Source of the DNA: an uncultured Gammaproteobacteria bacterium
GTDB lineage: Bacteria > Patescibacteriota > Patescibacteriia > UBA1558 > GWA2-36-10
NCBI GenBank assembly: GCA_964604515.1
Contig: CAZRZA010000002.1
Span: 1,607-65,606 of the forward strand
DNA length: 64,000 nucleotides
Direction of reading: 5' to 3'
This document shows, piece by piece, positions 7,797 to 55,983 of this stretch (position 1 is the stretch's first letter; each line of letters opens with the position of its first letter). A program made the position numbers and the translations under genes. Below the pieces are notes generated by a model. That model worked only from the letters and a program-made list of their open reading frames with translations. It ran no database searches and was not told where the DNA came from.

Positions 7797-7836
7797 AAAA
7801 ACCCCTTCGTATAAACAGAGGGGTTTTAGGTTTTTT
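7797..7836. terminator. bidirectional hairpin terminator between the small ORF 7826-8086 and ychF
   Basis: aaaacccctt-cgtataaacag-aggggtttt with A/T runs on both sides. Confidence 0.5.
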
Positions 7837-8086
7837 GAAAATGCCTATCACAATATTCAATAAATGAATTATAAGCATTTTGCTTTATTTTGAAAAGAGA
7901 GCCTTGTAGTATTTCTTTATTTTTCTTGTAGAAATAATAAGAAAGGTAATTATTTACAAAAGAAATATATAAATATTTAGATTTTTTTGGTATATATATT
8001 TTATATTTATTCTTTTCAAGTTTTAAAGTAATGCTTTTACCATGATTAACAATTGAATCATAAGTAACTACTGTTCTTTTTTTCAT
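7826..8086 (-). CDS. hypothetical small basic protein
   Basis: 86-aa ORF with no recognisable motifs. Confidence 0.25.
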   Translation of the reverse strand: MKKRTVVTYDSIVNHGKSITLKLEKNKYKIYIPKKSKYLYISFVNNYLSYYFYKKNKEILQGSLFKIKQNAYNSFIEYCDRHFQKT

Positions 8087-8212
8087 TTTACCTCCTTTTT
8101 AATGAACTTATTAAGTTAAAAAATAACTTAATACTTATATTTATAACAGTAAATATTATTTATGTAAAGTTATTTGTTAAATAATATCTTTTACTATATA
8201 ATGTATAAACTT

Positions 8213-10225
8213 ATGAAAGTAGACTTTATTAAAGAATTAAATAAAGAGCAATATAAATTAGTAACAGCTAAGTCTGGGCCGCGTTTAGTTTTAGCAGGGG
8301 CTGGCTCTGGAAAGACCAGAACCTTAATATATAGAATAGCTTATTTAATAGAACAAGGTTTAAATCCTCAGAAAATACTTTTAGTTACTTTTACTAATAA
8401 GGCTGCTCAAGAAATGAAAGAGAGAACTAGGAAGATATTAAATTTAGGCATTAAAGATAAATTACCAATCTGGAGCGGCACTTTTCATTCTTTAGCTAAT
8501 AGACTTTTAAGAATATACGGAAAAGAAATAGGAATAAAGAGTAATTTTAGTATTTTAGATACCCAAGATAGTAAAGCTTTAATAAAAAAGATAGCTAAAA
8601 AATATTTTGCTTCTTTAGATAAAAACAGAAGACCTTCAGCTAATATTATTAAAGAAACAATTTCTTTTGCCACCAACTCTGGTTTTAGTATAGAGGAAAG
8701 CTTAGAAAGAAAATTTGGAGAATGGTTACCATTTTTAGAAATATTTGAAAAAATAAATAAAGAATATATTGAGAAAAAGAAGATAGCAAATTCTTTAGAT
8801 TTTGATGATTTATTATTATCTTGGAAAGAATTAACTATTCATCCTAAAATAGGACCTCTTTTGCAAAAAAAGTGGGAACATATATTAGTAGATGAATATC
8901 AGGATACTAATTATTTACAGGATCAAATAATATATAATCTAGCTTCTATTCATCAGAATATAATCGTTGTTGGTGATGATGCGCAAAGTATTTATTCTTT
9001 TCGGGCAGCTAATATAGATAATATTTTAAATTTCCCTAAAGTATATAATAATTGTCAGATTCATAAATTAGAAGTAAACTATAGATCTACTCCAGAAATA
9101 GTATCTTTAGCTAATTATATTATTAAAGAGAACAAAGAGCGGTTTCCTAAAAACCTAAAAGCAGTTTTAGCTAGTTTCTTAAAACCTAAATTATTAGCTG
9201 CTAAGAATAATATAGAAGAGGCTTTAATGATTGCTGATAATATAGAAGAATTATTAGAAGCGGGCCTAGAATTAAAGGATATTGCTGTTCTGTTTAGAGC
9301 AGCTAATCACTCCCAATCTTTAGAAATGGAATTAAATAAAAGAAATTTAGCCTATGATATGAGAGGGGGTTTAAAGTTCTTTGAAAGAGCTCATATTAAA
9401 GACATTGTTGCTTATTTAAGGGTTTTAACAAATATACACGATGAAGCTTCTTGGTCTCGTATATTACAATTATATGAAGGAATAGGAGAGGTAACTATTA
9501 ATAAAATTTTTCAAGAAATTGTTAATTGTAAAGATATAGAAGATATATTTGATTTAAACATTTCTTTATCTTCTAAGGCTCAAAAAAGTTATTTAGAAGT
9601 AATTAACTTATTTAAGAAGTTAAATAAATTTGATAAAAAAGAATTAGCTAAACTTTTAGATTTTTTAATTAAAGAATATACTCTCTATTTAAACTCTCAG
9701 TATCCAGACTATCAACAAAGAGGACTAGACTTAGATCAATTAACTATCTTTTCAGTTAATTATAAAGACTTAGATCAATTTCTAGCAGAGGTTTCTTTGC
9801 AAGAAAACTTTAATTTAAAAGATAAATTAAATAAAAATAATAATAAAATAATATTGAGCACTATTCATCAAGCAAAAGGATTAGAGTGGCCAGCCGTTTT
9901 TATTATCAATTTAAATAACCAGGCCTTTCCTAATCCGCGAGCTATAGAGTCTGGGGAAGTAGAAGAAGAAAGAAGGTTGTTTTACGTTGCTATTACCAGA
10001 GCTCAAAAGAATTTATGCTTAAGCTATCCTTTGGCTACTATTAGATTTGATGGTTATAAGAATTTACAGCCTTCAGAGTTTGTTTCTAATATAGATAATA
10101 ATTTATTAGAGTATAATTCTTTAGCTAAAGGTACTTACTTTTCAGATGCAGATGATGTACAATATATTATAGATCAAGATAATCAGGATAATGATGACTT
10201 TTTACCAGATATAAGTGATTGGTAA
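8213..10225 (+). CDS. uvrD: UvrD/PcrA-family ATP-dependent DNA helicase
   Basis: Walker A AGAGSGKT, helicase motifs (TFTNKAAQEM, GTFHS, VDEYQDTN, VVGDDAQSIYSFRAA, TIHQAKGLEW, YVAITRA); start probably MKVDF. Confidence 0.85.
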   Translation: MKVDFIKELNKEQYKLVTAKSGPRLVLAGAGSGKTRTLIYRIAYLIEQGLNPQKILLVTFTNKAAQEMKERTRKILNLGIKDKLPIWSGTFHSLANRLLRIYGKEIGIKSNFSILDTQDSKALIKKIAKKYFASLDKNRRPSANIIKETISFATNSGFSIEESLERKFGEWLPFLEIFEKINKEYIEKKKIANSLDFDDLLLSWKELTIHPKIGPLLQKKWEHILVDEYQDTNYLQDQIIYNLASIHQNIIVVGDDAQSIYSFRAANIDNILNFPKVYNNCQIHKLEVNYRSTPEIVSLANYIIKENKERFPKNLKAVLASFLKPKLLAAKNNIEEALMIADNIEELLEAGLELKDIAVLFRAANHSQSLEMELNKRNLAYDMRGGLKFFERAHIKDIVAYLRVLTNIHDEASWSRILQLYEGIGEVTINKIFQEIVNCKDIEDIFDLNISLSSKAQKSYLEVINLFKKLNKFDKKELAKLLDFLIKEYTLYLNSQYPDYQQRGLDLDQLTIFSVNYKDLDQFLAEVSLQENFNLKDKLNKNNNKIILSTIHQAKGLEWPAVFIINLNNQAFPNPRAIESGEVEEERRLFYVAITRAQKNLCLSYPLATIRFDGYKNLQPSEFVSNIDNNLLEYNSLAKGTYFSDADDVQYIIDQDNQDNDDFLPDISDW

Positions 10226-10238
10226 TAATAAAATAAAT

Positions 10239-11021
10239 ATGGAAAAAGATATAATAGTATTAGATTTAGAAACTAAAAAGACTTTTGATGAAGTTGGTGG
10301 TCAAGAGAATAGACATCTTTTGGGGGTGACCGTTGTCGGAGTATATTCATATCAAAGAGATGAATATCGTGCTTTTAGAGAAGAAGAGTTCACAGAACTT
10401 TTAGAATTATTAAAGAACACCAAATTAGTAATAGGCTTTAATAGTATTAGTTTTGATTTTACTGTTCTACAACCTTATTATAAAGAATTTGACTTAAGCA
10501 CTATACCCCATTTAGACATCCTTAAAGAAATATATGATATTTTAGGGTTTAGACTTAAATTAGAATCAGTTGCTCAAACTACCTTAGGTTATGGTAAATC
10601 AGGTAATGGTTTAGATGCTATTATCTATCATCGTAATAATGAATGGGACAAATTAATTAAATATTGTTTAGATGACGTAAAAGTAACTAAAGAATTATAT
10701 GAATATGGTTTGAATCATGGACATATTTGGTATACTAACTCCGGCCAGAAGACAAAGATTAATAGTTCTTGGTCTAATGGTGATCAGAAAATATCTGATA
10801 AAGTAATAGTAGCCTTTAAGAAGGGAGAGCAAATATTAATAGATTATATGGATAGCAGTGGTAATATTACCCAAAGAAAAATAGACATTCAAAGTATTAA
10901 TAGTAATAAAATAAAAGCTTTTTGTCATTTAAGAGATGCTATTAGACTATTTGATTTAGATAGAATAAAGAAAATAGAAACTAGTGGTAAAATGGCTAAT
11001 TGGCAAGACAGTTTATTATAA
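10239..11021 (+). CDS. DEDD-family 3'-5' exonuclease (DnaQ/RNase T-like) fused to C-terminal WYL domain
   Basis: Exo I DLET, Exo II FNSISFDFTVL, Exo III YCLDDV; C-terminus ILIDYMDSSGNITQRKIDIQSI...KAFCHLRDAIRLFDLDRI matches the WYL-domain signature (compare PafC ...WYLVAHCHLRGDVRTFRLDRI); start 13 nt after uvrD stop. Confidence 0.7.
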   Translation: MEKDIIVLDLETKKTFDEVGGQENRHLLGVTVVGVYSYQRDEYRAFREEEFTELLELLKNTKLVIGFNSISFDFTVLQPYYKEFDLSTIPHLDILKEIYDILGFRLKLESVAQTTLGYGKSGNGLDAIIYHRNNEWDKLIKYCLDDVKVTKELYEYGLNHGHIWYTNSGQKTKINSSWSNGDQKISDKVIVAFKKGEQILIDYMDSSGNITQRKIDIQSINSNKIKAFCHLRDAIRLFDLDRIKKIETSGKMANWQDSLL

Positions 11022-11037
11022 GTTATTAAAGATTTAT

Positions 11038-13188
11038 ATGAAGAAAGTAAATATAAAAATATCAGGAATGCATTGTGCTTCTTGTGCTCTTACTATAGAA
11101 AAGAATATTAAAAAAGAAAAAGGTATTAAAGAGGCTAGTGTTAATTATGCTAATAGTAAGGCCTATTTAAAATATGATGAAAATAAAATTAAAGAAAAAG
11201 ATTTAGAAAATATAATTATTAATTCTGGGGACTATAAAATAGTTAAAGGTAATGAAGAAGATTTAATAAAAAAAGCATATTTAAAATTTATTTATTCTTT
11301 GATATTAACTTTACCTTTATTTTTATCAATGTTCTATACTTATCATTTTAATATTAAATATTTTGGTATAGACCTAGAAATTTGGTTAGCTCATCACTTA
11401 GCCTTTCTAATTGTTTTTATTATTGGTAAACAATTTCATAGAGGAATGTTTAGTCAGTTAAAAAGATTTAAAGCTAATATGGATACTCTTATTTCTTTAG
11501 GTACTATCTCTGCTTATCTTTATAGTGTTTATGCTATGATTAATAATCAGGCCGTTTATTACGAAACAGCCGGCACTATTATTACTTTAATATTATTAGG
11601 AAAGTATTTAGAAGAAAAAAGTAAAGGTAAAGCTTCTTTAGCTATAAAGAAATTATTATCTTTAACCGTTAAAAAGGGCAGGGTATTAATTAATAGTAAA
11701 GAAGAAGAAAAGGACATTGAATTAATAAAAGTAGGGGATATACTTTTAATAAAAGTAGGAGAAAAAATACCTTTAGATGGAGAAATAATAGAAGGAGAAA
11801 CAGCTATAGATGAATCCATGTTAACTGGAGAGTCTATACCAGTAGAAAAAAAAGAAGGAGACATAGTATATGGAGCTACCATTAATAATCAAGGTATTAT
11901 TAAAGTAAAAGTTACTAAAATAAATCAAGATACTGCTTTGGCTCAAATTATTAAATTGGTTGAGAATGCTCAAGCCTCTAAAGCACCGATACAAAAATTA
12001 GCAGATAAAGTTTCTGGTATTTTTGTCCCAGTAGTAATAGTTATTTCTATTTTAACTTTTATTATTTGGTTTTTTATATTTAATACTTCTTTAGAGATTA
12101 GTATTATAAACGCAGTCGCTGTTTTGGTAATAGCTTGTCCTTGTGCTTTGGGATTAGCAACCCCTACTGCTATTATGGTTGGTAGTGGCAAAGGATCTTC
12201 TCAGGGTATTTTAATTAAAGATTCTCAAAGCTTAGAAATAGCTCATAAAGTTGATACTATAGTTTTTGATAAAACAGGAACATTAACAGAAGGTAAATTA
12301 AGCGTTACTGATATTAATACAGTTTCTCATGATTTAAACACAAGTCAATTAATGACCCTAGCTTATTCTTTAGAAAATAGTAGTGAACACTCTTTGGCTT
12401 CAGCTTTTATTAAATATGGTCAAGAGAATAAATTAAAATTAAAAGAAGTAAATAAAGTTGAAATTTTAAGAGGCAGAGGATTAAAGGGCAATGTAGATAA
12501 TAAAGAAATATATTTAGGAAATACTAAATTAGTAAAAGAATTAAAAATAGAGCTAAATCCTGTTTATGAAGTAGCTTTTGAACAATATGCTCAAGAGGGA
12601 AAAACCTCTATTTATTTTATTAAAGATAATAAAGTTTCAGGAGTAATAGCTGTGGTTGATATTCTTAGAAAAAATTCTCAGAAATTAATAGAAAGACTTC
12701 CTAGTAATATAGAAACTTATATTTTAAGCGGTGATCATCAGAAAACAGTTCAAGCTATGGCTCAGAAATTAAAAATTAAAAATATTATTGCTGAAGTATT
12801 ACCAGAACAAAAAGTAAAAGAAATAAGTAAATTACAAGAAGAAGGTAAGGTAGTAGCTTTTATCGGAGATGGCATTAATGATGCCCCAGCCCTTATTCAA
12901 GCTAATTTAGGAATAGCTGTTGGCAGTGGAACAGACATAGCCTTAGAATCTGGTAATATTGTTTTAATAGACAGTAATCCTTTAAAAATTATTTCTGCTA
13001 TTAATTTATCTAAAAAAACATTTAAAATAATTAAACAAAACTTATTCTTTGCTTTTTTCTATAATAGTATAGCTATTCCTTTAGCAGCCTTGGGATTATT
13101 AAATCCGATGATAGCTGCTTTAGCTATGAGCTTCTCTTCAGTTTCGGTAATAGTAAATAGTTTAAGGATTAAAACTATTGAATTATAA
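11038..13188 (+). CDS. copA: copper/heavy-metal translocating P-type ATPase
   Basis: N-terminal HMA domain GMHCASC, CPC motif in TM6 (ACPCALGLATP), DKTGTLT phosphorylation site, GDGINDAPAL hinge. Confidence 0.9.
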   Translation: MKKVNIKISGMHCASCALTIEKNIKKEKGIKEASVNYANSKAYLKYDENKIKEKDLENIIINSGDYKIVKGNEEDLIKKAYLKFIYSLILTLPLFLSMFYTYHFNIKYFGIDLEIWLAHHLAFLIVFIIGKQFHRGMFSQLKRFKANMDTLISLGTISAYLYSVYAMINNQAVYYETAGTIITLILLGKYLEEKSKGKASLAIKKLLSLTVKKGRVLINSKEEEKDIELIKVGDILLIKVGEKIPLDGEIIEGETAIDESMLTGESIPVEKKEGDIVYGATINNQGIIKVKVTKINQDTALAQIIKLVENAQASKAPIQKLADKVSGIFVPVVIVISILTFIIWFFIFNTSLEISIINAVAVLVIACPCALGLATPTAIMVGSGKGSSQGILIKDSQSLEIAHKVDTIVFDKTGTLTEGKLSVTDINTVSHDLNTSQLMTLAYSLENSSEHSLASAFIKYGQENKLKLKEVNKVEILRGRGLKGNVDNKEIYLGNTKLVKELKIELNPVYEVAFEQYAQEGKTSIYFIKDNKVSGVIAVVDILRKNSQKLIERLPSNIETYILSGDHQKTVQAMAQKLKIKNIIAEVLPEQKVKEISKLQEEGKVVAFIGDGINDAPALIQANLGIAVGSGTDIALESGNIVLIDSNPLKIISAINLSKKTFKIIKQNLFFAFFYNSIAIPLAALGLLNPMIAALAMSFSSVSVIVNSLRIKTIEL

Positions 13189-14131: not shown

Positions 14132-14213
14132 TTAATCAAAAAAGGGATATTCAACTTTTAAGTATAAAGAATCTATTTGATAAAGAACGAAGTAATCAAT
14201 CAAAAAAGGGATA

Positions 14214-15059
14214 TTATTTAATATCCCTTTTTATTTTATATAATTTTAAAGTATTATATAAGAGCATGGCGACGGTCATTGGGCCTACTCCTCCGGGGAC
14301 AGGAGTAATATGGCTTACTTTTTCAAAGACATCAGTATAATCAACATCTCCAACTATATGTTTTTGATCTATTTTATTAGTACCAATATCAATAATAATA
14401 CTATTTTTTTTAACCATTTCTTTTTTAATAAAGAAAGGATTGCCAATAGCAGCTATTAAAATGTCTGCTTCTTTACTTAATTCAGATAGATTAGTAATAC
14501 TAGGTTTTATTATTTTAGTATGTATATTTTTATCCTCTAATAATTTTTTTAAAGGCTTATAAAAAACATCAGATTTAGAAATAATTAAAGCTTCTTTATT
14601 CTTTAAATCTTCTTTAGTAGCTTCTAATAATTTAATAATACCCAAGGGTAAACCAGGAACAAAAGTATTTTTATTATCTAATATTTTTTCAATATTTTTA
14701 GGATGAAAACCATCAGCATCTTTGTTTATATCAATAGCTTCTATTATTTTATCTGTATTTAAGTGTTTTGGTAATGGTAATTGTATTAAGATAGCATCTG
14801 TATGTTTATCTTTATTAAGAAAGTCTATAGTTTCTAAAACATGTTCTTCTGAAACATCTTTAATCATTAAATATTCATGAAACTCTATACCTACTTTCTG
14901 ACAAGCTTTCTTTTTTAAATTAACATATAAATTAGAAGCAGGGTCTTCTCCAATTAAAATAACAGCTAAATTTGGTTCTAAACTTTTTTGTCTTATTTCT
15001 ACACCTATTTCTTTTTGTATATCTTTAGCTATACTTCTGCCGTCTATTATTTCTGCCAT
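14214..15059 (-). CDS. folD: bifunctional methylenetetrahydrofolate dehydrogenase/cyclohydrolase
   Basis: FolD motifs (ILIQLPLP, NPDxDGFH, TPVPGGVGPMTVAMLL). Confidence 0.9.
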   Translation of the reverse strand: MAEIIDGRSIAKDIQKEIGVEIRQKSLEPNLAVILIGEDPASNLYVNLKKKACQKVGIEFHEYLMIKDVSEEHVLETIDFLNKDKHTDAILIQLPLPKHLNTDKIIEAIDINKDADGFHPKNIEKILDNKNTFVPGLPLGIIKLLEATKEDLKNKEALIISKSDVFYKPLKKLLEDKNIHTKIIKPSITNLSELSKEADILIAAIGNPFFIKKEMVKKNSIIIDIGTNKIDQKHIVGDVDYTDVFEKVSHITPVPGGVGPMTVAMLLYNTLKLYKIKRDIK

Positions 15060-16623: not shown

Positions 16624-18106
16624 ATGAAAAAATTAATATCTTTTTTTTGTGGTCATAGCATTATGTTCTATATATGCTATACCAAAGGTAAGCAAAGCTT
16701 TTAGTTTTAGAGATTTATTACCTAACTTTTCTGTAAAAACAGAAGCTCAGACTAAGGATGTTGTAGTTTCTAAGGTTGATAAGGTAACCAAAGATTCTGC
16801 GGTCAATGAGTCTAGGAGTTATACAGATTCTAGATTTAATTATTTTGATTCTAGAATTAATACTTTAAATAGTAGTTTTAAGGGACTAGAGAATCAGGTT
16901 AATAATCTAGGAGATATTTCTGATACAGAAAATAATAATACTTTAGATTCTCGTAGTTTAGTAGAAAATCCTATGACTGAGAATTTGGACGGTGGTCAAA
17001 AATGGATAACAAATATTCGTCGTTTACATATAGAAAGTTCAGAGGACTCTAATGTTAATTTTCCAGGTATTCAGGTTTCTATGAATAGTCATAATGATAA
17101 TGCAATAACAGCAGAGACTCATGGTAATAATTCATATGCAGGTTATTTTAACGCTACAGGTAATAATTCATATGCCGGAAACTTTGAGGGCGATGTTAAA
17201 ATAGATGGCGACTTCAATATAAATAGAACATATACAGGATATGAAGGGGATAGCATCTTTAGTGTTTATGATGGTGATATTGTTACTGCTGGTCCAAACG
17301 TTGATATTAATGGAGCAGATTTAACTTTGAATGATGGTAATTTACACTTTAATAATATTGGGTTTCCAGCAATTAGACTAGATGATAATGTGAGCCAATT
17401 TGATATAAGATGGGATGGTAGTTCTTCTTATTATACCTTTAGCAGAGAAGGTTTAGTTATTGCTGATGGTTCATTAGATGTGTATGGTGATATAAGGTCT
17501 AGGCCTGGAAATAAGATTAAGTCTAGTAATTTTTGTGATGGTAGTGGAAATAATTGCTTTAATATTGCGACTAGTACTAGTAATATTGGTACATGGAACT
17601 TGGGCTCTAATTTAAATTTTCATGAAGCTGATTTAGTATTTAGCAGTAATTATGGATCGGGCAGTACGGCCCATATTAAGTTAGAGGATGATGTAGAAAA
17701 TCTTAGAATTGGTTGGTGGGAGTTTAATGATAATAATAATGATTATGCTAGATATAATTTTGGGCAAGATCTTTTCAGGATTTATGAGGGAGATCTTTCA
17801 CTTTATCAAGGTAGTATTGGAATAGGAACAGATAGTCCAAATAGAAATTTACATATTAAAACAAATGAGGGTGATCAATATATGAACGCTGAAATAGATA
17901 TTCAGTCTGGCGATAATAATTACTGGGGAATTTATCAGGATCATAATGATGGTTCTTTAAATTTTTGGCATGAGGACAATAGAGTAATCTTTACTAACGA
18001 AGGCATTGAAACAGATAAAATTGATTTAGGAGAATTATGTTTAGATGATATTTGTGTAGATAGTTGGGGAAAATTAAAGTTAATATTATCAAATATGACC
18101 TATTAA
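16624..18106 (+). CDS. secreted tail-fibre-like repeat protein; N-terminal signal peptide separated by a +1 frameshift in a T8 run
   Basis: ATG 16624 encodes MKKLISFF then T8 (16641-16648); removing one T gives MKKLISFFVVIALCSIYAIPKVSKA (classic signal peptide) in frame with the 485-aa GTG-initiated ORF 16649-18106; body has GNNSYAG repeats and a SIGIGTDSPNRNLHIK motif typical of phage tail-fibre/adhesin proteins. Confidence 0.55.
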
Positions 18107-20462: not shown

Positions 20463-20506
20463 ATAGCTATATTAAAATATTTCTAATGTCATTATTTCAA
20501 AAAATT

Positions 20507-21733
20507 ATGAAAAAGATTAAAACTAAAGTAGGGGCTAAGATTTCTACAGAAACAAAGCTACTTTTGAGTGTAGTTATGCTTTTATCTTCCATAGGTTTTA
20601 TGGGATTTGCTAATGGTCTAGTAAGGGCACCGGCAAAAGTTATTGAAAAAAGAATTGTAAAATTAGAAAGAATTACAGAAGAAAACAATAAGAAAATAGA
20701 GAAATTGGTGGAAAAGAAGAGAATATTGAAAAATGAGTTTTTTTCTGGAGGAGAACTTGGTAATACTATTGATGATACTGAAGAAGGAAGTGTAAAATTT
20801 TACTCTGTAGGAACCTTAAACTGTTGTACAACATATGGTAGGTATGGCATGGAAGGATTAGAGGGCGGTGGATGTGCTACTGATAATATGCCAGCTTATA
20901 CAAGCTCTGCTAATGAATGTTGCTATGTAAAAGATTTTTATGAGGAAGCTCATTATGCAGGAGATGATATATACGGTTGTTATGACGAAGATCGTGGGTG
21001 TCAAGAAGACGAATGTGGAGTATGTGGTGGTGATGGCAGTTCTTGTATGGAAGAAGGGGAGCTGTTTGCATGTGATAATAATTCTCAGTGTGGATCTGAA
21101 TTTTGTAATGATAATGGATATTGTGAAGAATATGAAGTGTTTTGCCCTAACGGTGATGAATGTAATGGAGGTCAAACATGCGATAGTGAGTGTATTACCA
21201 ATGGTTTCGCGTACCCTTGTTGTGTCCCTACCTTTATTATTGATAATTCCGTAGATTGTGAGGGCACATTTAATGGAGATGTTGTCTTAGACGAATGTGG
21301 GGTATGTGGCGGTGATAATAGTTCTTGCGCAGACTGTTCTGGAACCCCAAATGGTAATGCTATGTTAGATAATTGTAATACTTGCGATGCTAATCCTAAT
21401 AATGACTGTTCTCTAGATTGTAGTGGTGTTTGGGGAGGTAATGCTTATGAGGATTATTGTGGAGTATGTGATTCTGATCCAGATAATAATAATCAATGCT
21501 CTAATTATTGTTCAGGTCATTCAGATTGTAACACTGATCAATATTGCTATAATCATATTTGTGAAACATATAGGCCAGATGGCTGTTCCTGGAACTTTCC
21601 TTGTGATGAGGGGGAGAGTGATTGTAACTTTAACTCTGATTGTGCTGGTAATTTAGTGTGTGGTACAAATAATTGTAGTTATGGCGGTATAAATGGTGTG
21701 CCAGACTTTGCAGACTGTTGTATGCAGCCATAG
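20507..21733 (+). CDS. secreted/membrane-anchored Cys-rich protein, paralog A of shared-leader family; ADAMTS-like CGVCGGD repeats
   Basis: N-terminus MKKIKTKVGAKISTETKLLLSVVMLLSSIGFMGFANG shared with ORFs 22713 and 23100; coiled-coil stalk; about 60 Cys with DECGVCGGDGSSC / DECGVCGGDNSSC / DYCGVCDSDPDNNNQC repeats. Confidence 0.65.
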   Translation: MKKIKTKVGAKISTETKLLLSVVMLLSSIGFMGFANGLVRAPAKVIEKRIVKLERITEENNKKIEKLVEKKRILKNEFFSGGELGNTIDDTEEGSVKFYSVGTLNCCTTYGRYGMEGLEGGGCATDNMPAYTSSANECCYVKDFYEEAHYAGDDIYGCYDEDRGCQEDECGVCGGDGSSCMEEGELFACDNNSQCGSEFCNDNGYCEEYEVFCPNGDECNGGQTCDSECITNGFAYPCCVPTFIIDNSVDCEGTFNGDVVLDECGVCGGDNSSCADCSGTPNGNAMLDNCNTCDANPNNDCSLDCSGVWGGNAYEDYCGVCDSDPDNNNQCSNYCSGHSDCNTDQYCYNHICETYRPDGCSWNFPCDEGESDCNFNSDCAGNLVCGTNNCSYGGINGVPDFADCCMQP

Positions 21734-23099: not shown

Positions 23100-24356
23100 A
23101 TGGCAAAAACTAAATCAAAAATCGGGACTAAAATCTCTACAGAAACTAAGTTATTATTAAGTGCAGTAATGCTATTATCAGCCTTAGGTTTTATTAGATT
23201 TGCTAATATGGCGGTAAATATGGGTAATAATATATATAAACCTCAAATAGTGAGATCAAATAATATTACTAAACATAATAATGAAATAGCTCAAAAAGAG
23301 CTAAAGAGAAGAGTGGAAATAACAAAATGTAGAACAGATAAAGAATGTATTAAAGAAGGTAAGATCTGTAAAAAAGAAAGAGGACAAAGATTTGGCTCTT
23401 GTTCTTTACCTGAATTAGTAGAATTACCACCTTCCTTTCCAGAAGATGATTTTGACAACGATACTAATCCCTTAGATCAATTAACTCATTATAATATGGA
23501 TTTTGGACAAGCTCAGCCGGGTGATCCTAATATTGATGACAGATTCTGTGCGCCGTTAACCCAAACCGTAGTAGATGCCTACCTAGATGAAATAGGAAAT
23601 AATCCTGCTACGGTAGCAGATATAATAGCAGGAGGATGTTTAGAGTTAGAAGAAGATATAAACATGGGCATCGGAGCACTTTCTTTTGATGATTATAATT
23701 CTGGTTTAGAATTTAATTGTAATGGTTATGAGATTATAGGAACAGGAGCCTTTGGAATGTTCTTAAACGGAACTGTAACCGCTAATGACTGTGTTATTAG
23801 TGACAGGACGTATAATTCAGATATAACAGGCAGCGGCAGGGGACTTATGTTATATGACACCAGCACCGTAAATAACAGCACAGCTGATAATAATTATTAT
23901 GGATTTGAATTACATGACACCAGCACCGTAAATAACAGCACAGCTATTAACAGCGAGTTCTTTGGATTTAGGTTGTTTAATTTTAGTACCGTAGATAACA
24001 GCACAGCTGATAATAATTATCATGGGTTTGGATTAAATGACACCAGCGTCGTAAATAATAGCACAGCTCATAATAATTCTGAAGGATTTATATTGTCTGA
24101 CAATAGCACCGTAAATAACAGCACAGCATATGACAATGACTTAGGATTAAACAGTGGTCCTTGGGGTGAGCCAGTAAATATTATAGGAGGAAGCTTTTGT
24201 AATAACACAAACAATGATATAGAGAGTGGCAATAATGCAGCTATCTTTACAGGAATAATTCAAGTAACAGATCCTGTTATTAGCATTGGAACCTTTGATC
24301 CTCTTAACTCAGACTTTACCCTAGAAACATGTACTTCGACTACACCAGGTATTTAA
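23100..24356 (+). CDS. secreted beta-helix repeat protein, paralog D of shared-leader family
   Basis: MAKTKSKIGTKISTETKLLLSAVMLLSALGFIRFAN leader; Cys-knot-like CRTDKECIKEGKICKK; 20-aa repeats TSTVNNSTADNNYYGFELHD x5 (parallel beta-helix-like). Confidence 0.65.
   Translation: MAKTKSKIGTKISTETKLLLSAVMLLSALGFIRFANMAVNMGNNIYKPQIVRSNNITKHNNEIAQKELKRRVEITKCRTDKECIKEGKICKKERGQRFGSCSLPELVELPPSFPEDDFDNDTNPLDQLTHYNMDFGQAQPGDPNIDDRFCAPLTQTVVDAYLDEIGNNPATVADIIAGGCLELEEDINMGIGALSFDDYNSGLEFNCNGYEIIGTGAFGMFLNGTVTANDCVISDRTYNSDITGSGRGLMLYDTSTVNNSTADNNYYGFELHDTSTVNNSTAINSEFFGFRLFNFSTVDNSTADNNYHGFGLNDTSVVNNSTAHNNSEGFILSDNSTVNNSTAYDNDLGLNSGPWGEPVNIIGGSFCNNTNNDIESGNNAAIFTGIIQVTDPVISIGTFDPLNSDFTLETCTSTTPGI
23856..24155 (+). 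repeat. five tandem ~60-bp coding repeats (gacaccagcaccgtaaataacagcacagct...)
   Basis: Near-identical 60-nt units at about 23856, 23916, 23976, 24036 and 24096 inside ORF 23100-24356. Confidence 0.7.
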
Positions 24357-35004: not shown

Positions 35005-37836
35005 ATGAAAAAAGAAATAAGCATTAAAGGTGCTAGAGTACACAATTTAAAGAATATAGATATAAATATACCTCGTGATAAATTTGTGGTTATTACAGGT
35101 CTTTCTGGTTCTGGTAAATCTTCTTTAGCTTTTGACACTATTTATGCTGAAGGCCAAAGACGTTATGTAGAGTCATTATCTAGCTATGCTAGACAATTTT
35201 TGGATGTAATGAATAAACCGGATATAGATAAAATAGATGGTTTATCACCAGCCATATCTATAGATCAAAAATCTTCTTCTCGTAATCCCAGGTCTACGGT
35301 AGGTACTATTACAGAAATATATGATCATTTAAGGTTATTATTTGCTCGAATAGGAATACCTCATTGTTTGGAATGCTCTGAAAGGTTAATTAAACAAAAT
35401 GTCAAAGATATTACAGATAAAGTGTGGTCTTTGCCTTTAGATACAGACTTAATGATTCTTTCTCCTATTGTTAGAAATAAAAAAGGTGAACATCGTAAAT
35501 CTTTAGAAAGAATAGAGGGTGCTGGCTATAAAAGATTAAGATTAGACGGAGAAATTATTAACATTAAGAAGGCTAAAAATGTTGTTTTAGATAAGAATAA
35601 AAAACATAATATAGAAATAGTTATTGATCATATAAATAATGATAAAGAAAAGAAAACTAAAGAAAGACTAAGTAGTGCCTTAGTTAATGGTTTAGACCTA
35701 GGCAATGGTTTTATTATTATTAATTTAACCAAGGATAATAAAGATTTAAATTTTAGCGAATATTATTCTTGTCCTAAGCATAGTGAGATTAATTTATTAG
35801 AATTAGAGCCCAGAAACTTTTCTTTTAATAGTCCTCAGGGAGCTTGTCATGCTTGTTCTGGCTTAGGTACAAATTTAATTGTTGATGGTGATTTAGTAAT
35901 TCCTAATAAAAGACTATCCTTGGCAGAAGGAGCAATACGTCCTTGGTCCCGAACAGCGTCTAATCAGTCTTGGTATACAGCTATTATAGAAGCAGTTGCT
36001 AAGAAGTATAAGTTTTCTACTAGAGATCCTATTACAAAGTTAAAAGAAAAACATTTAAATATAATATTAAATGGTACTGGTGAAGAAGCATATAAGTTAA
36101 ACTTAAGTAATAATTATAAAAATACTTTTGAAGGAGTAATAGCCAATCTAAAAAGAAGACATACAGAAACAGATTCTGATTATATTCGTAGTGAAATAGA
36201 AAGATATATGAGGGTATATACCTGTCCTTCTTGTCAGGGCAAGAGATTGAATGAAGAGGCTTTAGCTGTTACATTTTTAGATAAAAATATTTCTTATATT
36301 TCTTTATTAAGCATTAAAGAGCTAACTCATTTCTTTAAAGATTTGAACAAAAGATTAAATAAAGAAGAAAACATAATAGCCGATCCTATTATCAAGGCTA
36401 TTAAAGAAAGACTTAAGTTTTTAAATAATGTTGGTTTAGATTATTTGTCTTTAAATCGTTCGGCTAATACTTTGTCAGGTGGTGAAGCACAAAGAATTCG
36501 TTTAGCTACTCAAATAGGAACTTCTTTAACGGGGGTATTATATATTTTAGATGAACCCTCTATTGGTTTACATCAAAGAGATAATAAAAAATTAATAATA
36601 GCTTTAAAAAAATTAAGAGACTCTGGTAATTCAGTAATAGTAGTAGAGCATGATGAGGAAACAATATTAGCAGCTGATTATGTTATTGACATAGGTCCTG
36701 GAGCAGGCAAAAAAGGAGGAGAAATAATCTTTGCGGGTTTAGCTAAAGATATTATCAAAGACAATAAGTCTTTAACTGGACAATACTTAAAAGGAAAAAA
36801 AAGTATCCCTATTACTAAGAAAAAAAGGAAAGGAAATAGTAAATATATAGACATTAAAGGAGCCTCTGAATTTAATTTGAAGAATATAGGTATTAAGATA
36901 CCTTTGGGCAAATTTATTAGTATTACAGGAGTATCTGGTTCTGGTAAATCTACTTTAGTTACCGAAATATTAGCTAAAGCTTTATCGCAACATTTTTATA
37001 AAACAAAGGCTAAGCCGGGCCAGTATAAAGAAATTAAAGGTTTAGAAAATATAGATAAAGTAATAAATATAGACCAATCTCCAATTGGCAGAACTCCTAG
37101 ATCTAATCCAGCAACCTATACAGGCGTCTTTACTTATATTAGGGATTTATTTGCAGAACAAAAAGAAGCTAAATTAAGAGGATATAAAGCTGGTCGCTTT
37201 TCTTTTAATGTTAGAGGAGGAAGATGTGAAGTTTGTCAGGGAGATGGTTCTGTAAAAATTGAAATGAATTTTTTAGCAAATGTTTATATAGAATGTAAAG
37301 AATGTCATGGTAAAAGATATAATACTGAAGCCTTAGAAATACATTATAATCAAAAAGATATTTCAGAAATATTAGAAATGACAGCTGAAGAAGCAGCTAA
37401 TTTCTTTATTGATATTTCTAATATCTATAATAAATTAAAAGTCTTAGTAGATGTTGGTTTGGGATACATTAGGCTAGGACAACCAGCTAATACTTTATCA
37501 GGTGGGGAAGCCCAAAGAATTAAATTAGCAACAGAATTATCTCGTAGATCTTCTGGACAGACATTATATATTTTAGATGAACCAACTACGGGTTTACACT
37601 TTGATGATATTAAAAGATTATTAGAAATATTACATCGTTTAACAGACAAGGGTAATACAGTTATAGTGGTAGAACATAATTTAGATGTTATTAAATCTTC
37701 TGATCATCTTATTGACTTGGGGCCAGAAGGAGGAGACAAAGGTGGCTATATAGTAGCAGAAGGCAAGCCAGAGGAAGTAGCCAAAATTAAAAAGAGTTAT
37801 ACGGGACAATATTTAGCTAAAGTATTTAAAAAATAA
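35005..37836 (+). CDS. uvrA: excinuclease ABC subunit A
   Basis: Two ABC modules ([12 protein letters not shown] and [11 protein letters not shown] Walker A), ABC signatures LSGGEAQR x2, zinc fingers CPxC...CxxC. Confidence 0.97.
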
Positions 37837-37846: not shown

Positions 37847-38794
37847 ATGAATAATTTAGAAAAATCAATTTTAAAGACAATAGTTTTTGCTGATATTTTT
37901 AATTATCCCCTAACAATAACAGAAGTATATAAATGGTTATATAAACCAACTAAAATAAAAGGTAAATACCCTTCTTTATTTTTAATAAGAAAAACTTTAA
38001 AAGAATCTAAGATTATTTCAGAAAAACTTTCTCAAAGAGAAGGTTTTTATTATTTAAAAGGACGAAGAAATATTATTTATCTTCGTAAACAAAATAATAA
38101 TTTAGCTGAAAGTAAATTTTCGAGAATAGTTTCTTTAATTAAAATATATAGATTTATTCCTTTTGTGAGAATGATAGCAATTTGTAATTCTTTAGCTATT
38201 TCTAATGCTAATGAAAATAGTGATATAGACTTATTTATTATAACTAAAAAAAATAAAATTTGGTTAGCTAGATTTTTTACAGTTATTTTGGTTAAGTTTT
38301 TTGATTTACGTCCTCGTGAAGATAAGTCTAAAGATACTTTTTGTTTAAGCTTCTTTATTGATGAAGACTATTTAAATATTAAGAATATTATGATTAATCA
38401 TCATGATATTTATTTGCCTCATTGGATACAACAATTAATGCCTATTTACAATCCAGATTATTTATATGAAAAGTTTATGAAAGCTAATAATTGGTACAAA
38501 GAATATTTACCAAATGGTTATAATAATGAATTTGTTCATGAGGTTAAAGAAACTTATTTTTCTCGATTTTATAATATTATTATCAATGCTCTTTTTTCAA
38601 TACCCTTTATATCATATTATATACATGGTTTATTAAGAAAAATTCAGATTTTAATTATTGGGCATAATTTAAAAGCTTTAGTAAATTTAAATACTAAAGT
38701 AATTGTTAATAATCAGATGTTAAAGTTTCATGATAATGATAGAAGAGAAATGTTTTTTAAACAATGGAAAGAGAAATTAAATAATTTATTATGA
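37847..38794 (+). CDS. hypothetical protein, possible nucleotidyltransferase-fold
   Basis: 315 aa; SNANENSDIDLFII resembles the pol-beta-type NTase hG[GS]...DxD motif; 4-nt overlap with next ORF. Confidence 0.3.
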   Translation: MNNLEKSILKTIVFADIFNYPLTITEVYKWLYKPTKIKGKYPSLFLIRKTLKESKIISEKLSQREGFYYLKGRRNIIYLRKQNNNLAESKFSRIVSLIKIYRFIPFVRMIAICNSLAISNANENSDIDLFIITKKNKIWLARFFTVILVKFFDLRPREDKSKDTFCLSFFIDEDYLNIKNIMINHHDIYLPHWIQQLMPIYNPDYLYEKFMKANNWYKEYLPNGYNNEFVHEVKETYFSRFYNIIINALFSIPFISYYIHGLLRKIQILIIGHNLKALVNLNTKVIVNNQMLKFHDNDRREMFFKQWKEKLNNLL

Positions 38795-42051: not shown

Positions 42052-42082
42052 TAACACCTCTCTTTTGAGAGGTGTTTTTTTA
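42052..42082 (+). terminator. Rho-independent terminator after groEL
   Basis: aacacctctc-tttt-gagaggtgtt followed by T7. Confidence 0.7.
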
Positions 42083-42109
42083 TTAGTGTTTTTTTGTTAT
42101 AATATAAGT

Positions 42110-42607
42110 ATGGTCAAAGAAGAAGCAAAATTAGATATAGAATATAAAGAAACTACTGAAGCTTGGGTTAAGGAAGTGGATCAAGACAAAGAAGATTTAG
42201 AAAAGTTTCAAGAAGAAAAAACAGAAGAAGCTAAAAAGATTTCTTGGATTTTATTAGTATTTATTTTATTTATAATTTCTATTTTAGGAGAAATTATAGT
42301 TTATAGCATTGGGGACTATTTTTTTATTAAGGAAATTAATATAAATATATTAATTTGGTTATGGAGAGTTATTTTGATTAATTTTTATTTATACATCTCC
42401 TATTTTAGAATACACTTACCTTTGGAAAGAATATTTATCATAGCTATTATATCTTTAGTAGCTTCTATTATAGCTTCTATTATTTTTAAAATATTATTTA
42501 TTAATGATGCCTGGGTTTACTTAAATTTATTAGTAGAACCTATTTGGATTATATTATTAATTGCTTTATTTGGTAGTTTATATATTAAATATATTTTTAA
42601 AAATTAA
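42110..42607 (+). CDS. hypothetical membrane protein
   Basis: Acidic N-terminal segment then 3-4 TM helices. Confidence 0.3.
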   Translation: MVKEEAKLDIEYKETTEAWVKEVDQDKEDLEKFQEEKTEEAKKISWILLVFILFIISILGEIIVYSIGDYFFIKEININILIWLWRVILINFYLYISYFRIHLPLERIFIIAIISLVASIIASIIFKILFINDAWVYLNLLVEPIWIILLIALFGSLYIKYIFKN

Positions 42608-50527: not shown

Positions 50528-50989
50528 ATGTTTTTAACAGCTCATACCTCAGTTGCTTTGTTAATAAGTACTAAAATAATTAATCCTTTTTTAGGTTTTA
50601 TTTTAGGTTTTATTTCTCATTTCTTAGTAGATATTATTCCCCATGGAGATGAGGAATTAGATCAGAAAATTATCCATTTAAATAGGAAAGATAAATTTAT
50701 TTTTTTAAGTTTAATTGGTTTTTTTGATTTACTTTTTTCTTTATTATTAGTTTATTTGTTTATTAAATATTCAAGTATAAATAATAATATAATTTGGTTT
50801 ACAGTAATAGGGTCTTGGTTACCAGATATGTTTTGGTTAAGTATAGATTTTTTTAAGGTAAAATTTTTAGGATTTTTTATTAAATTTCATACTTATATGC
50901 ATACTTTAATTGATTATAAGTATCCAATAATATATGGAATACCAGTACAAATTATTTTTGTGTTATTTATATCTTACTTTACATATTAA
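50528..50989 (+). CDS. hypothetical membrane protein
   Basis: 153 aa, 4 predicted TM helices, conserved-looking HGDEELD loop. Confidence 0.3.
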   Translation: MFLTAHTSVALLISTKIINPFLGFILGFISHFLVDIIPHGDEELDQKIIHLNRKDKFIFLSLIGFFDLLFSLLLVYLFIKYSSINNNIIWFTVIGSWLPDMFWLSIDFFKVKFLGFFIKFHTYMHTLIDYKYPIIYGIPVQIIFVLFISYFTY

Positions 50990-54909: not shown

Positions 54910-55983
54910 ATGAATATTTTAGAAACATTTTCTCAGTTTAATTTAGGTTCTAATACAGGCTTAGATTATTTTTATGCTTTTTTAATTTTTTTAGCTAGTT
55001 TAATGGTTTTAAAGATTTTTCAAATCATAATATTAAATAGATTGTCTAAGCTAGCTCAGAAAACTAAAACAGATTTAGATGATGCTTTAATAGGTACCTT
55101 TAGAGATATTAGGCCTCCTTTTTATTTTTTAATATCTTTATATTTAAGTGTTAAAAGCTTAATACTTCCTCTTTTACTTTTAAAGATATTAAAAGTATTG
55201 CTTATTGTAGTTGTTGTCTATGAAGTAATTAGAGCCATAGAAAAGGTTTTAGATTATTTAATTAATTTATACTTTTCTAAAAAAGACAATAAAGACATTT
55301 CAATACATAGTAAAGCGATGATTAAAACTCTCCAAGGCATTATCAAGGCTTTTCTTTGGTTAATTGGTATAATTTTAATTTTATCTAATTTAGGTATTAA
55401 TATTACATCTTTAGTAGCTAGCTTAGGTATTGGTGGTATCGCTATTGCCTTAGCATTAAAGAATATTATTAGTGATATTCTTTCTTCTTTCTCTATTTAT
55501 ATAGACAAACCATTTGAAGTAGGTGATTTTATTGCTTTAGGGACAGATAAAGGAACTGTAGAAAAGATAGGATTAAAGAGTACTAGAATAAAAACACCTC
55601 AGGGTGAAGAGTTGGTAATACCTAATCAAGAATTAACTTCTGTTAGGGTTCAGAACTTTAGAAAAATGAAAGAGAGAAGAGCTTCTTTTAATTTAGGTGT
55701 TGTTTATGGTACTTCACAAATGAAATTAAAATCTATACCAAGAATTATTAAAGAAATAATAAAGAAAGAGAAATTAGCTAAATTTGATCGTTGTTATTTT
55801 ACTACCTTTGGAGACTTCTCTCTAATATATGAAGTTGTTTTTTATATTAATAGTAGGGAGTATGTAGATTTTTTAAAAACTAAACATAAAATTAATTTAG
55901 AAATATATAAACAATTTGAAAAAGAAGGGATAGAATTTGCTTATCCAACGCAAACATTAGTAGTTGATAAAGTAAATGACTAA
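54910..55983 (+). CDS. mscS: small-conductance mechanosensitive channel (MscS family)
   Basis: Three N-terminal TM helices, pore helix ASLGIGGIAIALALKNIISDILSS, beta-domain FEVGDFIALGTDKGTVEKIGLKSTRIKTPQGE. Confidence 0.85.
   Translation: MNILETFSQFNLGSNTGLDYFYAFLIFLASLMVLKIFQIIILNRLSKLAQKTKTDLDDALIGTFRDIRPPFYFLISLYLSVKSLILPLLLLKILKVLLIVVVVYEVIRAIEKVLDYLINLYFSKKDNKDISIHSKAMIKTLQGIIKAFLWLIGIILILSNLGINITSLVASLGIGGIAIALALKNIISDILSSFSIYIDKPFEVGDFIALGTDKGTVEKIGLKSTRIKTPQGEELVIPNQELTSVRVQNFRKMKERRASFNLGVVYGTSQMKLKSIPRIIKEIIKKEKLAKFDRCYFTTFGDFSLIYEVVFYINSREYVDFLKTKHKINLEIYKQFEKEGIEFAYPTQTLVVDKVND

Follow-up and report, generated by a model that had tools for sequence, protein, structure and literature searches.

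A PcrA/UvrD-like helicase and an exonuclease-WYL protein with a clamp-motif-like tail as a probable DNA-maintenance pair in Patescibacteria

Patescibacteria (CPR) have tiny genomes, and almost none of their DNA-repair proteins have been studied experimentally. A 64,000-nucleotide stretch of DNA from one such bacterium, hereafter called the window, encodes a helicase followed closely by a predicted 3'-5' exonuclease fused to a WYL domain, which raises the question of what process the two proteins serve. A first-pass annotation had left the choice between a DNA-repair module and a compact, defence-like nuclease-helicase module. The features on which the argument draws are the following.

8174..8202, + strand: promoter-like site TTGTTA-17-TATAAT just 5' of the helicase start (10/12 consensus matches)
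8213..10225, + strand: SF1A UvrD/PcrA-type DNA helicase, 670 aa (ATG at 8213, TAA at 10223-10225)
10103..10222, + strand: acidic C-terminal tail of the helicase, ending FLPDISDW (10199-10222; regex scan)
10226..10238, + strand: 13-nt spacer between the helicase and exonuclease genes, without terminator-like structure
10239..11021 (stop codon included), + strand: exonuclease-WYL protein, 260 aa (ATG at 10239, stop at 11019-11021)
10239..10772, + strand: DEDDy 3'-5' exonuclease domain, aa 1-178, with catalytic D9, E11, D73, Y142 and D146
10791..10991, + strand: WYL domain, aa 185-251, a helix leading into a beta-barrel of five strands
11004..11018, + strand: C-terminal pentapeptide QDSLL, a candidate beta-sliding-clamp-binding motif

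Both open reading frames are intact, public gene calls agree on products of 670 and 260 residues, and the 13-nt spacing reported in the first-pass annotation is exact (10226-10238); its calls of a UvrD-family helicase and of a DEDD exonuclease-WYL fusion are likewise borne out by Pfam profiles. The pair is directly flanked by ychF and copA and, more widely, by ychF, folD and glyA, with S1, gyrA, ruvB, uvrA, dnaG, an xthA-like gene, parAB and topA also within the window. The 64-kb window holds no second UvrD-like helicase, exonuclease paralogue, MrfA or PF04308 gene, and the scanned window ORFs include no DnaQ of the RNase_T type. As for transcription, we only infer that the two genes share a message: the promoter-like site upstream of the helicase is weak evidence because AT-rich sequence yields many such matches (51 against 40.8 expected), and no terminator-like site follows the pair until 14203-14232, so that the same argument would take in the downstream copA.

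The first protein matches UvrD-helicase (E=8e-77) and UvrD_C (E=2e-62) in Pfam, and its ATPase/helicase motifs, including GAGSGKT, DEYQD and VAITRAQ, are visible and intact in the translation. Among NCBIfam models PcrA fits it best, with 491 bits against an equivalog cutoff of 911, followed by the UvrD models (408-421 bits; NCBIfam UvrD at 408, under a cutoff of 1144) and Rep (403 bits); it is thus best described, from these scores, as a divergent PcrA/UvrD-like CPR helicase. PADLOC models for GajB (E=7e-90) and for a DRT-associated helicase (E=2e-93) also match it, but these matches are generic and domain-level, and at 300 bits for GajB and 312 for DRT RTasHel they fall below the 403-491 bits of PcrA, UvrD and Rep; together with the genomic context, these relative scores led us to reject a Gabija or DRT identity. 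The alignment to the PcrA profile covers positions 2-644 of 725, which indicates that the C-terminal, RNA-polymerase-binding Tudor region is missing. The protein ends in an acidic tail, and a regex scan for [FYIL]LP[DSE][VILA]x1-3[WLF]-COOH found this ending on 46 helicases of related loci as well as on the window's own, with no match on any other ORF of the window or of 80 loci. Two more matches of the scan and four further helicases terminate straight at ...LP[DE]V, so only the core [FYI]LP[DSE][VIL] is common to all motif-bearing helicases; four others that precede the exonuclease gene (L027, L029, L031 and L034) lack the tail motif.

The exonuclease domain of the second protein matches Pfam RNase_H_2 (PF13482; COG3359) at 41.6 bits, over a cutoff of 22, and an AlphaFold model of the whole protein (pLDDT 89.7, pTM 0.86) gives it the RNase H-like alpha/beta fold seen in the exonuclease clade. 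The motifs noticed in the first-pass annotation are present, with DLET at residues 9-12, FDFTVL at 72-77 and YCLDDV at 142-147; in two alignments D9, E11, D73, Y142 and D146 are invariant across the family, which thereby carries the Exo I (DxE), Exo II (Nx2-3FD) and Exo III (Y/Hx3-4D) motifs, four acidic residues and a general base included. The description of the domain as DnaQ-like holds at the superfamily level and fails below it, the protein being of the PF13482 and DEDDy type with no RNase_T match. For the same reasons we reject an epsilon/DnaQ identity at the family level, while retaining a proofreader-like role among the alternatives weighed below. The WYL-less proteins most closely related to it, at 37-40% identity, are fused to the C-terminus of MrfA/YprA helicases, whose helicase parts carry DEAD, Helicase_C, WHD_HRQ1 and MZB domains. 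Taken at the sequence level, the second gene is predicted to encode a Mg2+-dependent 3'-5' DNA exonuclease that is of the DEDDy type and belongs to the MrfB/YprB (PF13482) lineage. Public annotation calls the family 'ribonuclease H-like' or 'WYL domain-containing', one source names a member 'DNA polymerase III epsilon subunit-like', and no NCBIfam model covers the exonuclease-WYL protein. The only TPR signal, a TPR_7 match to residues 127-145, falls within the exonuclease domain and is sub-threshold, at 12.7 bits where 27.9 are required. Foldseek matches to retroviral integrases were set aside, as they reflect only the generic RNase H fold and an SH3-like barrel (TM about 0.2).

The WYL assignment, on which the first-pass annotation had staked its proposal, stands: the C-terminal domain matches PF13280 above threshold and forms an Sm/SH3-like barrel. 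Across the family alignment Y203, D216 and H230 never vary, conservation of R213 and R236 is 90% or more, and the eponymous W-Y-L triad reads K-I-K. We compared the domain with the CapW ligand-face residues S144, R164, R168 and R184: R236, conserved in at least 90% of the family, aligns with CapW R184; K226, which is variable, aligns with R168; and the position of R164 is occupied by S or G. With only R236 well kept and K226 partly so among the four CapW ssDNA-contact positions, ssDNA binding is not assured. WYL domains bind ssDNA in CapW/BrxR, in PafBC and DriD, and in bacterial Pif1 (Andis 2018, cited in PMC8053095); the exonuclease-WYL family profile also matches the Pif1-WYL chains 8bns and 8bnv. 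On present knowledge of WYL domains, ssDNA binding appears more likely here than gating by a small ligand. Our search found no relevant literature on WYL domains in Patescibacteria/CPR or on dnaQ in CPR.

The protein terminates in QDSLL, which fits the beta-clamp-binding consensus QL[S/D]LF, or more generally QxxLF (PMC12309361), as judged from the peptide's sequence. A scan for the terminal pattern Qxx[LMIFV][LFIVMY]-COOH matched every one of 120 close homologues, whose endings read Qxx[LF][LF], and just 2 of the 605 other long ORFs of the loci, and the WYL-less relatives end in ...QxxLF, ...ATLF or ...L[ST]LPF after a variable, non-conserved linker. The replicative epsilon subunit also bears a clamp-binding motif, QTSMAF (PMC12309361). 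In the model the last 10 residues have a pLDDT of 61, and the tail, seen as a flexible peptide, would most likely dock on the beta sliding clamp. The window's own tail ends in L rather than F, and it may form a structural helix instead of a docking peptide.

Clustered at 90%, the exonuclease-WYL homologues number 1612, and strict search patterns find the family in 561 of 185,579 species genomes, so that it is not obviously universal in CPR. Among the 80 listed records, nearly every one labelled with a definite lineage belongs to Patescibacteria, many other labels being generic or doubtful. Searches of 50,697 phage and 72,556 plasmid records gave no full-length homologue; the genes are chromosomal and largely restricted to Patescibacteria. 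Between lineages the exonuclease keeps 57-70% identity, on a par with ychF and folD and above the helicase, which points to strong purifying selection. Its locus is a conserved run of core genes (ychF / helicase, exonuclease / folD, glyA) whose order is stable and vertically inherited among housekeeping genes in dozens of Patescibacteria species (more than 57).

Within this run the helicase lies upstream on the same strand in 57 of the 72 related genome loci and in 3/3 WYL-bearing metagenome loci with enough upstream DNA; it is missing from the exonuclease neighbourhood in the other 15, and unrelated genes are interposed between the two in 24/72. The coupling of the two genes is therefore looser than the first-pass annotation assumed. 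The interposed genes are too heterogeneous to be a conserved third component (NUDIX, riboflavin-kinase-like, PNPOx-like, four-helix-bundle, membrane and surface proteins), and we discarded that idea. Linkage to glyA and ychF reaches more distant relatives than linkage to the helicase, and helicase adjacency is conserved no better than background synteny. Elsewhere the neighbours change: deeper lineages show xseA, lytR, a Cas4-like PD-(D/E)XK nuclease and then the exonuclease-WYL gene, with lexA adjoining; in another lineage the gene overlaps xseAB (ExoVII); an ExoIII-like gene is a further neighbour; and a YkuK-like RNase H-fold gene lies beside the exonuclease in 42/55 WYL-less loci. WYL-less orthologues at the syntenic position have no helicase nearby (0/39 loci); the correlation between helicase and WYL rests on essentially one clade. 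The exonuclease is thus the constant element, and its neighbours vary by lineage.

We consider it probable that the two genes form a vertically inherited housekeeping pair for DNA maintenance, composed of a Tudor-less PcrA/UvrD-type helicase and an MrfB-lineage exonuclease with a WYL domain and a putative clamp-docking tail. The repair option of the first-pass annotation is supported by the core-chromosome location, the vertical synteny, the MrfB-type homology and the neighbours in other lineages (ExoVII, the Cas4-like nuclease, LexA and the ExoIII-like gene). In the mechanism that we envisage, the exonuclease would be recruited through its tail by clamps sitting at nicks, gaps or primer ends; the helicase, moving 3'-5' as known for the UvrD/PcrA family, would peel off the damaged or nicked strand; and the WYL domain would keep hold of the freed ssDNA as the DEDDy site digests it from its 3' end, a last step suggested by homology to MrfB, a demonstrated 3'-5' DNA exonuclease, and to ssDNA-binding WYL domains. 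The WYL barrel, most likely an ssDNA binder, could serve as a substrate anchor or processivity module and possibly as an ssDNA-dependent switch. Direct cooperation between the helicase and the exonuclease is plausible.

It is possible, if rather doubtful, that the two genes are neighbours through inherited synteny only and that the exonuclease has no need of the helicase and acts at the replisome or clamp, either as an extrinsic proofreader and 3'-end editor for DnaE or other polymerases, functionally akin to epsilon, or as a primer or flap processor with RNase H-like partners. The family-wide conservation of the clamp-motif-like tail, with epsilon carrying such a motif too, speaks for this role, as do the helicase-free WYL-less orthologues paired with a YkuK-like gene, the loci with interposed genes, the lack of an RNase_T-type DnaQ among the scanned window ORFs and the epsilon-like label on one member; yet the enzyme belongs to the DEDDy/PF13482 and not the RNase_T/DEDDh epsilon type, shows no evident alpha-binding segment, has its nearest relatives fused to repair helicases and, under strict patterns, occurs in few of the surveyed genomes. 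Moreover, many bacteria proofread with the PHP domain of DnaE.

We also entertain, tentatively, a Patescibacteria-specific system built on a clamp-tethered 3'-5' exonuclease whose accessory module was swapped in evolution. In this scheme WYL-less forms would directly follow the YkuK-like gene and WYL-bearing forms the Tudor-less PcrA/UvrD helicase; the acidic FLPDxxxW tail of the helicase would dock on the exonuclease-WYL protein or on the same hub; the WYL domain would be an ssDNA-dependent activator and not a passive anchor; and the exonuclease-WYL protein would be the chief extrinsic nuclease for 3'-end editing or excision in these minimal genomes. Taken as a whole, this scheme is unlikely.

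That the protein is instead a 3'-5' exonuclease for RNA or oligonucleotides, like RNase D or the nanoRNase NrnC, with a WYL domain that binds RNA and no link to DNA repair, is improbable. Makarova et al. 2014 list, in passing, a 'WYL + 3'->5' exoRNase' fusion, and an RNase H-fold gene adjoins the WYL-less relatives, but the clamp-motif-like tail, the MrfA DNA-helicase fusions and the ExoVII, Cas4-like, LexA and UvrD neighbours indicate DNA, and the characterised MrfB was assayed as a 3'-5' DNA exonuclease. Least credible is a compact anti-phage module, Gabija-like or WYL-regulated, in which the WYL domain senses infection ligands or ssDNA and licenses the exonuclease: to the helicase matches above, and to the UvrD-like SF1 helicase domains shared with GajB and other defence helicases, this reading can add PADLOC matches of CRISPR- and DRT-associated WYL models to the C-terminal domain and the frequency of WYL domains on defence regulators (PMC4012209, PMC11662680), but the locus, with ychF and copA as direct neighbours and set in a stable order of housekeeping genes and not in an island or mobile context, has neither GajA (the OLD-family nuclease of Gabija) nor another defence partner, the protein lacks an HTH or WCX regulator architecture, its sequence is highly conserved, and the phage and plasmid collections hold no full-length homologue.

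This strongly conserved family joins a DEDDy exonuclease of the MrfB type to a WYL domain and a clamp-motif-like tail. If the housekeeping reading is true, the range of WYL domains, with its transcriptional sensors and helicase accessories, would grow by a clamp-associated exonuclease; a likely exonuclease for PcrA/UvrD-dependent excision or extrinsic proofreading in CPR would be named; and two short conserved peptides, one on the exonuclease and one on the helicase, would be accessible to direct partner-binding tests. The reading also cautions against labelling WYL-plus-UvrD pairs of this kind as defence systems.

Among known systems, E. coli mismatch repair offers a functional parallel: as with UvrD and Exonuclease I, ExoX or ExoVII, a 3'-5' helicase would unwind and a DEDD 3'-5' ssDNA exonuclease would degrade, both roles being predicted here. 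ExoI, too, pairs a DnaQ fold with a small SH3-like beta-barrel, and the short C-terminal peptide of the hub protein SSB recruits it; our protein has no sequence-level relationship to ExoI, its barrel is a WYL domain, and the beta clamp takes the place of SSB as its presumed hub. It differs from epsilon (DnaQ; DEDDh, RNase_T PF00929) in its DEDDy type and PF13482 membership and in the WYL domain inserted before the tail, and it bears no evident alpha (PHP)-binding C-terminal segment.

A close counterpart is the helicase and 3'-5' DNA exonuclease repair pair MrfAB (PMC11194089, PMC12458937), known as MrfA-MrfB or YprA-YprB in the mitomycin repair of Bacillus subtilis, where a helicase gene is likewise followed by a PF13482 exonuclease with a C-terminal accessory domain. 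MrfB, active on ssDNA and several dsDNA substrates, shares the homologous exonuclease domain with its long alpha-C and PolB-like variant of the DEDD fold (PMC11194089). The partner helicase here is, however, an SF1A UvrD/PcrA enzyme without MZB/DUF1998 and not an SF2 protein like MrfA, no MrfA-like sequence occurs in the window or in the flanks of the 80 loci, the general base is Tyr142 (Y-x3-D, DEDDy) where MrfB has His258 (DEDDh) (PMC11194089), and the C-terminal domain is a WYL in place of a TPR and is followed by the clamp-motif-like tail. Strict membership in MrfB is accordingly rejected on account of the DEDDy signature and the missing TPR and MrfA.

With PafBC, DriD, CapW/BrxR and Pif1-WYL, finally, the protein shares the WYL fold and a conserved Arg in the R-x-F segment (R236, equivalent to R184 of CapW). 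It departs from these WYL proteins in the W-Y-L triad, in two of the four CapW ssDNA-contact positions and in having an exonuclease as its partner domain, and without an HTH or WCX domain it is not a transcription factor. Pif1-WYL provides the precedent for a DNA enzyme that carries a WYL domain as an auxiliary module for binding ssDNA.

The exonuclease gene of the pair encodes a protein of 260 residues in which residues 30-156 match Pfam RNase_H_2 (PF13482; 41.6 bits, cutoff 22) and residues 190-247 match WYL (PF13280; 26.8 bits, cutoff 21.8). In its AlphaFold model (pLDDT 89.7, pTM 0.86), residues 1-178 fold as a DEDD alpha/beta domain, 185-194 form a helix and 197-251 a five-stranded barrel, followed by a C-terminal turn of lower confidence (pLDDT 61), so that the exonuclease-WYL fusion proposed in the first-pass annotation is borne out by both profiles and fold. 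Residues D9, E11, D73, Y142 and D146 are invariant in an 18-sequence alignment and thus compose a complete DEDDy active site; the earlier 'DnaQ-like' label holds for a DEDD exonuclease but not for the RNase_T/DnaQ type, as the enzyme is a PolB-like DEDDy member of PF13482. The WYL-region profile matches PafBC (1.5e-8), PafC, CapW, BrxR and the C-terminal WYL domain of bacterial Pif1 (8bns, 8bnv). Among the positions corresponding to the four ssDNA contacts of CapW, the well-conserved R236 aligns with R184, the variable K226 aligns with R168, and S or G stands in place of R164; as K-I-K also replaces the W-Y-L triad, the ligand face is only partly canonical. By analogy with Pif1-WYL, PafBC, DriD and CapW, the WYL domain may bind ssDNA.

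The protein terminates in WQDSLL, and all 120 of 120 close homologues end in Qxx[LMIFV][LFIVMY]-COOH, mostly as QNTLL, QKSLL or QTKLF, against a background of 2 in 605 other ORFs of 150 aa or more from the same loci. In homologous exonucleases that carry no WYL domain, the ends read ...QxxLF, ...ATLF or ...L[ST]LPF beyond a non-conserved linker of 9-30 residues, with a hydrophobic pair of this kind closing 58 of 75 such proteins in the metagenome set; versions fused to the MrfA helicase end with the exonuclease domain and have no peptide tail. The pattern is that of a short linear motif and is consistent with the beta-clamp-binding consensus QL[S/D]LF, more generally QxxLF, in which positions 1, 4 and 5 are critical and which is frequently C-terminal, as in PolC (PMC12309361). 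The tail is a candidate clamp-docking peptide.

In the window, whose G+C content is 26-31%, the two genes are intact and co-directional, and public annotations of identical metagenome contigs list the same 670-aa and 260-aa products. The features of the pair and its flanks are as follows.

Helicase-exonuclease pair and flanking features
7826-8086, reverse strand: 86-aa ORF between ychF and the helicase, also called in public records, with no Pfam match
8174-8202: promoter-like hexamer pair upstream of the helicase
8213 (ATG) to 10223-10225 (TAA), forward strand: helicase ORF, 670 aa
10103-10222, forward strand: acidic helicase tail of about 40 residues
10239 (ATG) to 11019-11021 (stop), forward strand: exonuclease-WYL ORF, 260 aa
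10984-14131: two genes between exonuclease and folD, copA (HMA, E1-E2 ATPase and hydrolase domains) and a coiled-coil ORF of 286 aa that matches no Pfam family
12594-12609, forward strand: weak 5-bp stem within copA
14203-14232, forward strand: first terminator-like hairpin past the pair

The ORF coordinates give exactly the 13-nt gap between helicase stop and exonuclease start that had been reported. The co-transcription claimed alongside it is plausible, because apart from the weak stem no terminator-like hairpin occurs on the forward strand before 14203-14232, yet it is not specific to the pair, since copA, the copper P-type ATPase gene that begins 13-47 nt past the exonuclease stop, is equally covered. 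Only one of 80 related genome loci (L013) shares copA at this position, and relative to most relatives copA and the 286-aa ORF look like an insertion into a conserved block.

That block, ychF (reverse), helicase and exonuclease-WYL (forward), folD and glyA (reverse), recurs in the 80 related loci. Among the 72 with enough upstream DNA, the helicase lies directly upstream of the exonuclease in 33, is separated from it by unrelated genes in 24, and is missing within 6 kb in 15. The intervening genes are varied (NUDIX hydrolases, riboflavin-kinase-like, PNPOx-like and membrane proteins, and surface proteins of ~1000 aa). In four relatives the insert codes for a protein of 925-1114 aa that is membrane-anchored and probably exposed at the surface (L003:3002-5977, L018:3202-5979, L022:2893-5976, L024:2635-5979), whose N-terminal anchor is conserved and whose body is highly divergent. 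Linkage to ychF and glyA reaches more distant relatives than linkage to the helicase, and helicase adjacency thus does not exceed the background synteny in conservation. The main rival to a cooperating pair is that adjacency reflects synteny only and that the exonuclease, acting alone at the clamp, edits 3' ends in the manner of a proofreader.

In a more distant clade of 43-48% identity (L073-L077, L079 and L080, e.g. L074:2912-7740; one of them under the label Kerfeldbacteria), xseA is followed by a lytR-family gene, the gene of a stand-alone Cas4-like PD-(D/E)XK nuclease (PF12705) and exonuclease-WYL, the last two overlapping or within ~20 nt, with genes for a small HhH protein and LexA convergent to them; this is a DNA-damage gene cluster. 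In other lineages, exonuclease-WYL overlaps xseA-xseB, has both an ExoIII-like and a PF04308 gene beside it, or lacks repair-gene neighbours. The WYL-less relatives in metagenomes have a UvrD-like helicase upstream in 0 of 39 loci, compared with 3 of the 3 WYL-bearing metagenome loci that have enough upstream DNA. Of the 55 WYL-less loci whose upstream DNA is available, 42 carry, directly before the exonuclease, a gene for a PF04308 protein (YkuK/DUF458, ~160 aa, RNase H1-like fold); these pairs (L095-L174, e.g. L100:5500-6560, and L087, L091 and L093) come mostly from unlabelled metagenome contigs, one cluster being named Patescibacteria, and constitute a conserved two-nuclease gene pair that is apparently undescribed. 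Apart from the ExoIII-like neighbourhood noted above, PF04308 genes are absent near the WYL-bearing forms, and the window has none. One WYL-less locus, L091, has nearly the window's neighbours (Lactamase_B_3, rpsA ... exonuclease ... glyA ... folD), though there glyA and folD share the exonuclease's strand instead of being convergent with it, and its exonuclease is probably the orthologue of the window's. The exonuclease is thus the constant element, while its partners are exchanged between a YkuK-like nuclease, a Cas4-like nuclease with ExoVII, and a PcrA-like helicase; helicase adjacency tracks the WYL form, though essentially within one clade.

A word-indexed search returned 1612 homologues of the exonuclease-WYL protein, the best 120 at 56-100% identity, and a scan in which each species was represented by one genome located relatives in 561 genomes. 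Named homologues come from Parcubacteria, Komeilibacteria, Nomurabacteria and unclassified Patescibacteria; they are labelled 'WYL domain-containing' or 'ribonuclease H-like domain-containing', or are hypothetical proteins. Many MAG records with a Patescibacteria-type locus (L002, L006, L013 and others) are titled 'uncultured Gammaproteobacteria bacterium', one record 'Candidatus Aerophobetes' and one protein 'Ignavibacteriales'; such third-party titles are probably mislabelled or mis-binned entries. In two loci of the P0141 cluster (L085/L086), a 251-aa exonuclease with WYL ending in ...STPLF adjoins an inositol-monophosphatase-family gene in large genomes (contigs of 0.9-4.9 Mb), so that the architecture is not strictly CPR-limited. 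An exhaustive profile search retrieved 3288 proteins at E<=1e-3, of which 335 reached E<=1e-30. Some 40 full-length clusters rank first; next come exonucleases of 175-200 aa that stand alone, and then proteins of 900-1180 aa with the exonuclease domain at their C terminus. The sampled large proteins are MrfA/YprA helicases with DEAD, Helicase_C, WHD_HRQ1 and MZB domains, and two of them, one from Desantisbacteria, showed 37-40% identity to the window's exonuclease domain by tblastn. In B. subtilis, MrfAB is a repair pair of a helicase and a 3'-5' DNA exonuclease (PMC11194089, PMC12458937, PMC3985635). MrfB is PF13482-like, as is the window's exonuclease, but uses His258 as general base where the latter family has Tyr, and carries a TPR tail in place of WYL. 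From its homology to MrfB and to the exonuclease domains of polymerases, the protein is predicted to have 3'-5' DNA exonuclease activity; Makarova et al. (2014) listed a 'WYL + 3'->5' exoRNase' fusion without further analysis, and RNA as the substrate is possible but disfavoured. Our literature search found no published study of the family.

Pfam places the helicase in the UvrD family (UvrD-helicase E=8e-77, UvrD_C E=2e-62). Its best NCBIfam models (PcrA 491 bits, UvrD 408-421 bits, Rep 403 bits) all score below their equivalog cutoffs, as expected of a divergent CPR helicase, and because the PcrA alignment ends at position 644 of 725, the usual C-terminal Tudor-like domain is missing. In its place stands the acidic tail (...DNDDFLPDISDW), ending in FLPDISDW. 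A scan of the ORFs of the window and the 80 loci with the regular expression [FYIL]LP[DSE][VILA]x1-3[WLF]-COOH matched 46 helicases of related loci, the window's own helicase and no non-helicase ORF. Six further helicases stop immediately after ...LP[DE]V, and some lineages read ...QYLPEV; the common core is therefore only [FYI]LP[DSE][VIL], and four helicases (L027, L029, L031, L034) lack the motif. The tail, conserved on nearly all helicases upstream of the exonuclease, looks like a candidate docking peptide; FLPDISDW is unlike both the clamp consensus and the SSB tip.

The pair sits in core chromosome, in the order ribosomal protein S1, gyrA, ruvB, ychF, pair, copA, folD, glyA, with groEL, pyruvate kinase, dnaG, typA, parA, parB, relA/spoT and topA also in the window, together with the following.

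Further features of the window
35005-37836: uvrA
55976-56746: ExoIII-like gene
16649-18106, 20486-21733, 23100-24356, 37847-38794, 42065-42607 and 50528-50989: six ORFs (153-485 aa) with no Pfam match at E<=1e-5, typical CPR 'dark' proteins

The presence of uvrA indicates nucleotide excision repair, which requires a UvrD/PcrA helicase, and the 64-kb window holds no second UvrD-like gene, exonuclease paralogue, MrfA, PF04308 or RNase_T protein. The PADLOC GajB and DRT-helicase models match the helicase at 300-312 bits, below the housekeeping models, and phage and plasmid collections yielded no full-length exonuclease-WYL homologue; a defence role of the pair is unlikely.

A housekeeping exonuclease associated with repair or replication is the best-supported reading of exonuclease-WYL. 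We propose that the clamp would recruit the enzyme, which, anchored on ssDNA, would degrade 3'-ended strands; in the window's lineage the substrate would plausibly be strands freed by the adjacent PcrA/UvrD-like helicase, with which the exonuclease may cooperate. This model offers a concrete, testable hypothesis for CPR DNA maintenance and introduces no new principle; the components of the protein and of the pair are of known kinds. What appears undescribed is the combination of an MrfB-lineage DEDDy exonuclease with WYL and a clamp-motif-like tail, its restriction mainly to Patescibacteria together with partner swapping, and a PcrA-like helicase that lacks the Tudor domain and has a conserved terminal peptide of its own. 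If the exonuclease does act on helicase-released strands, its functional analogues would be UvrD with ExoI or ExoX, as in E. coli, and MrfA with MrfB.
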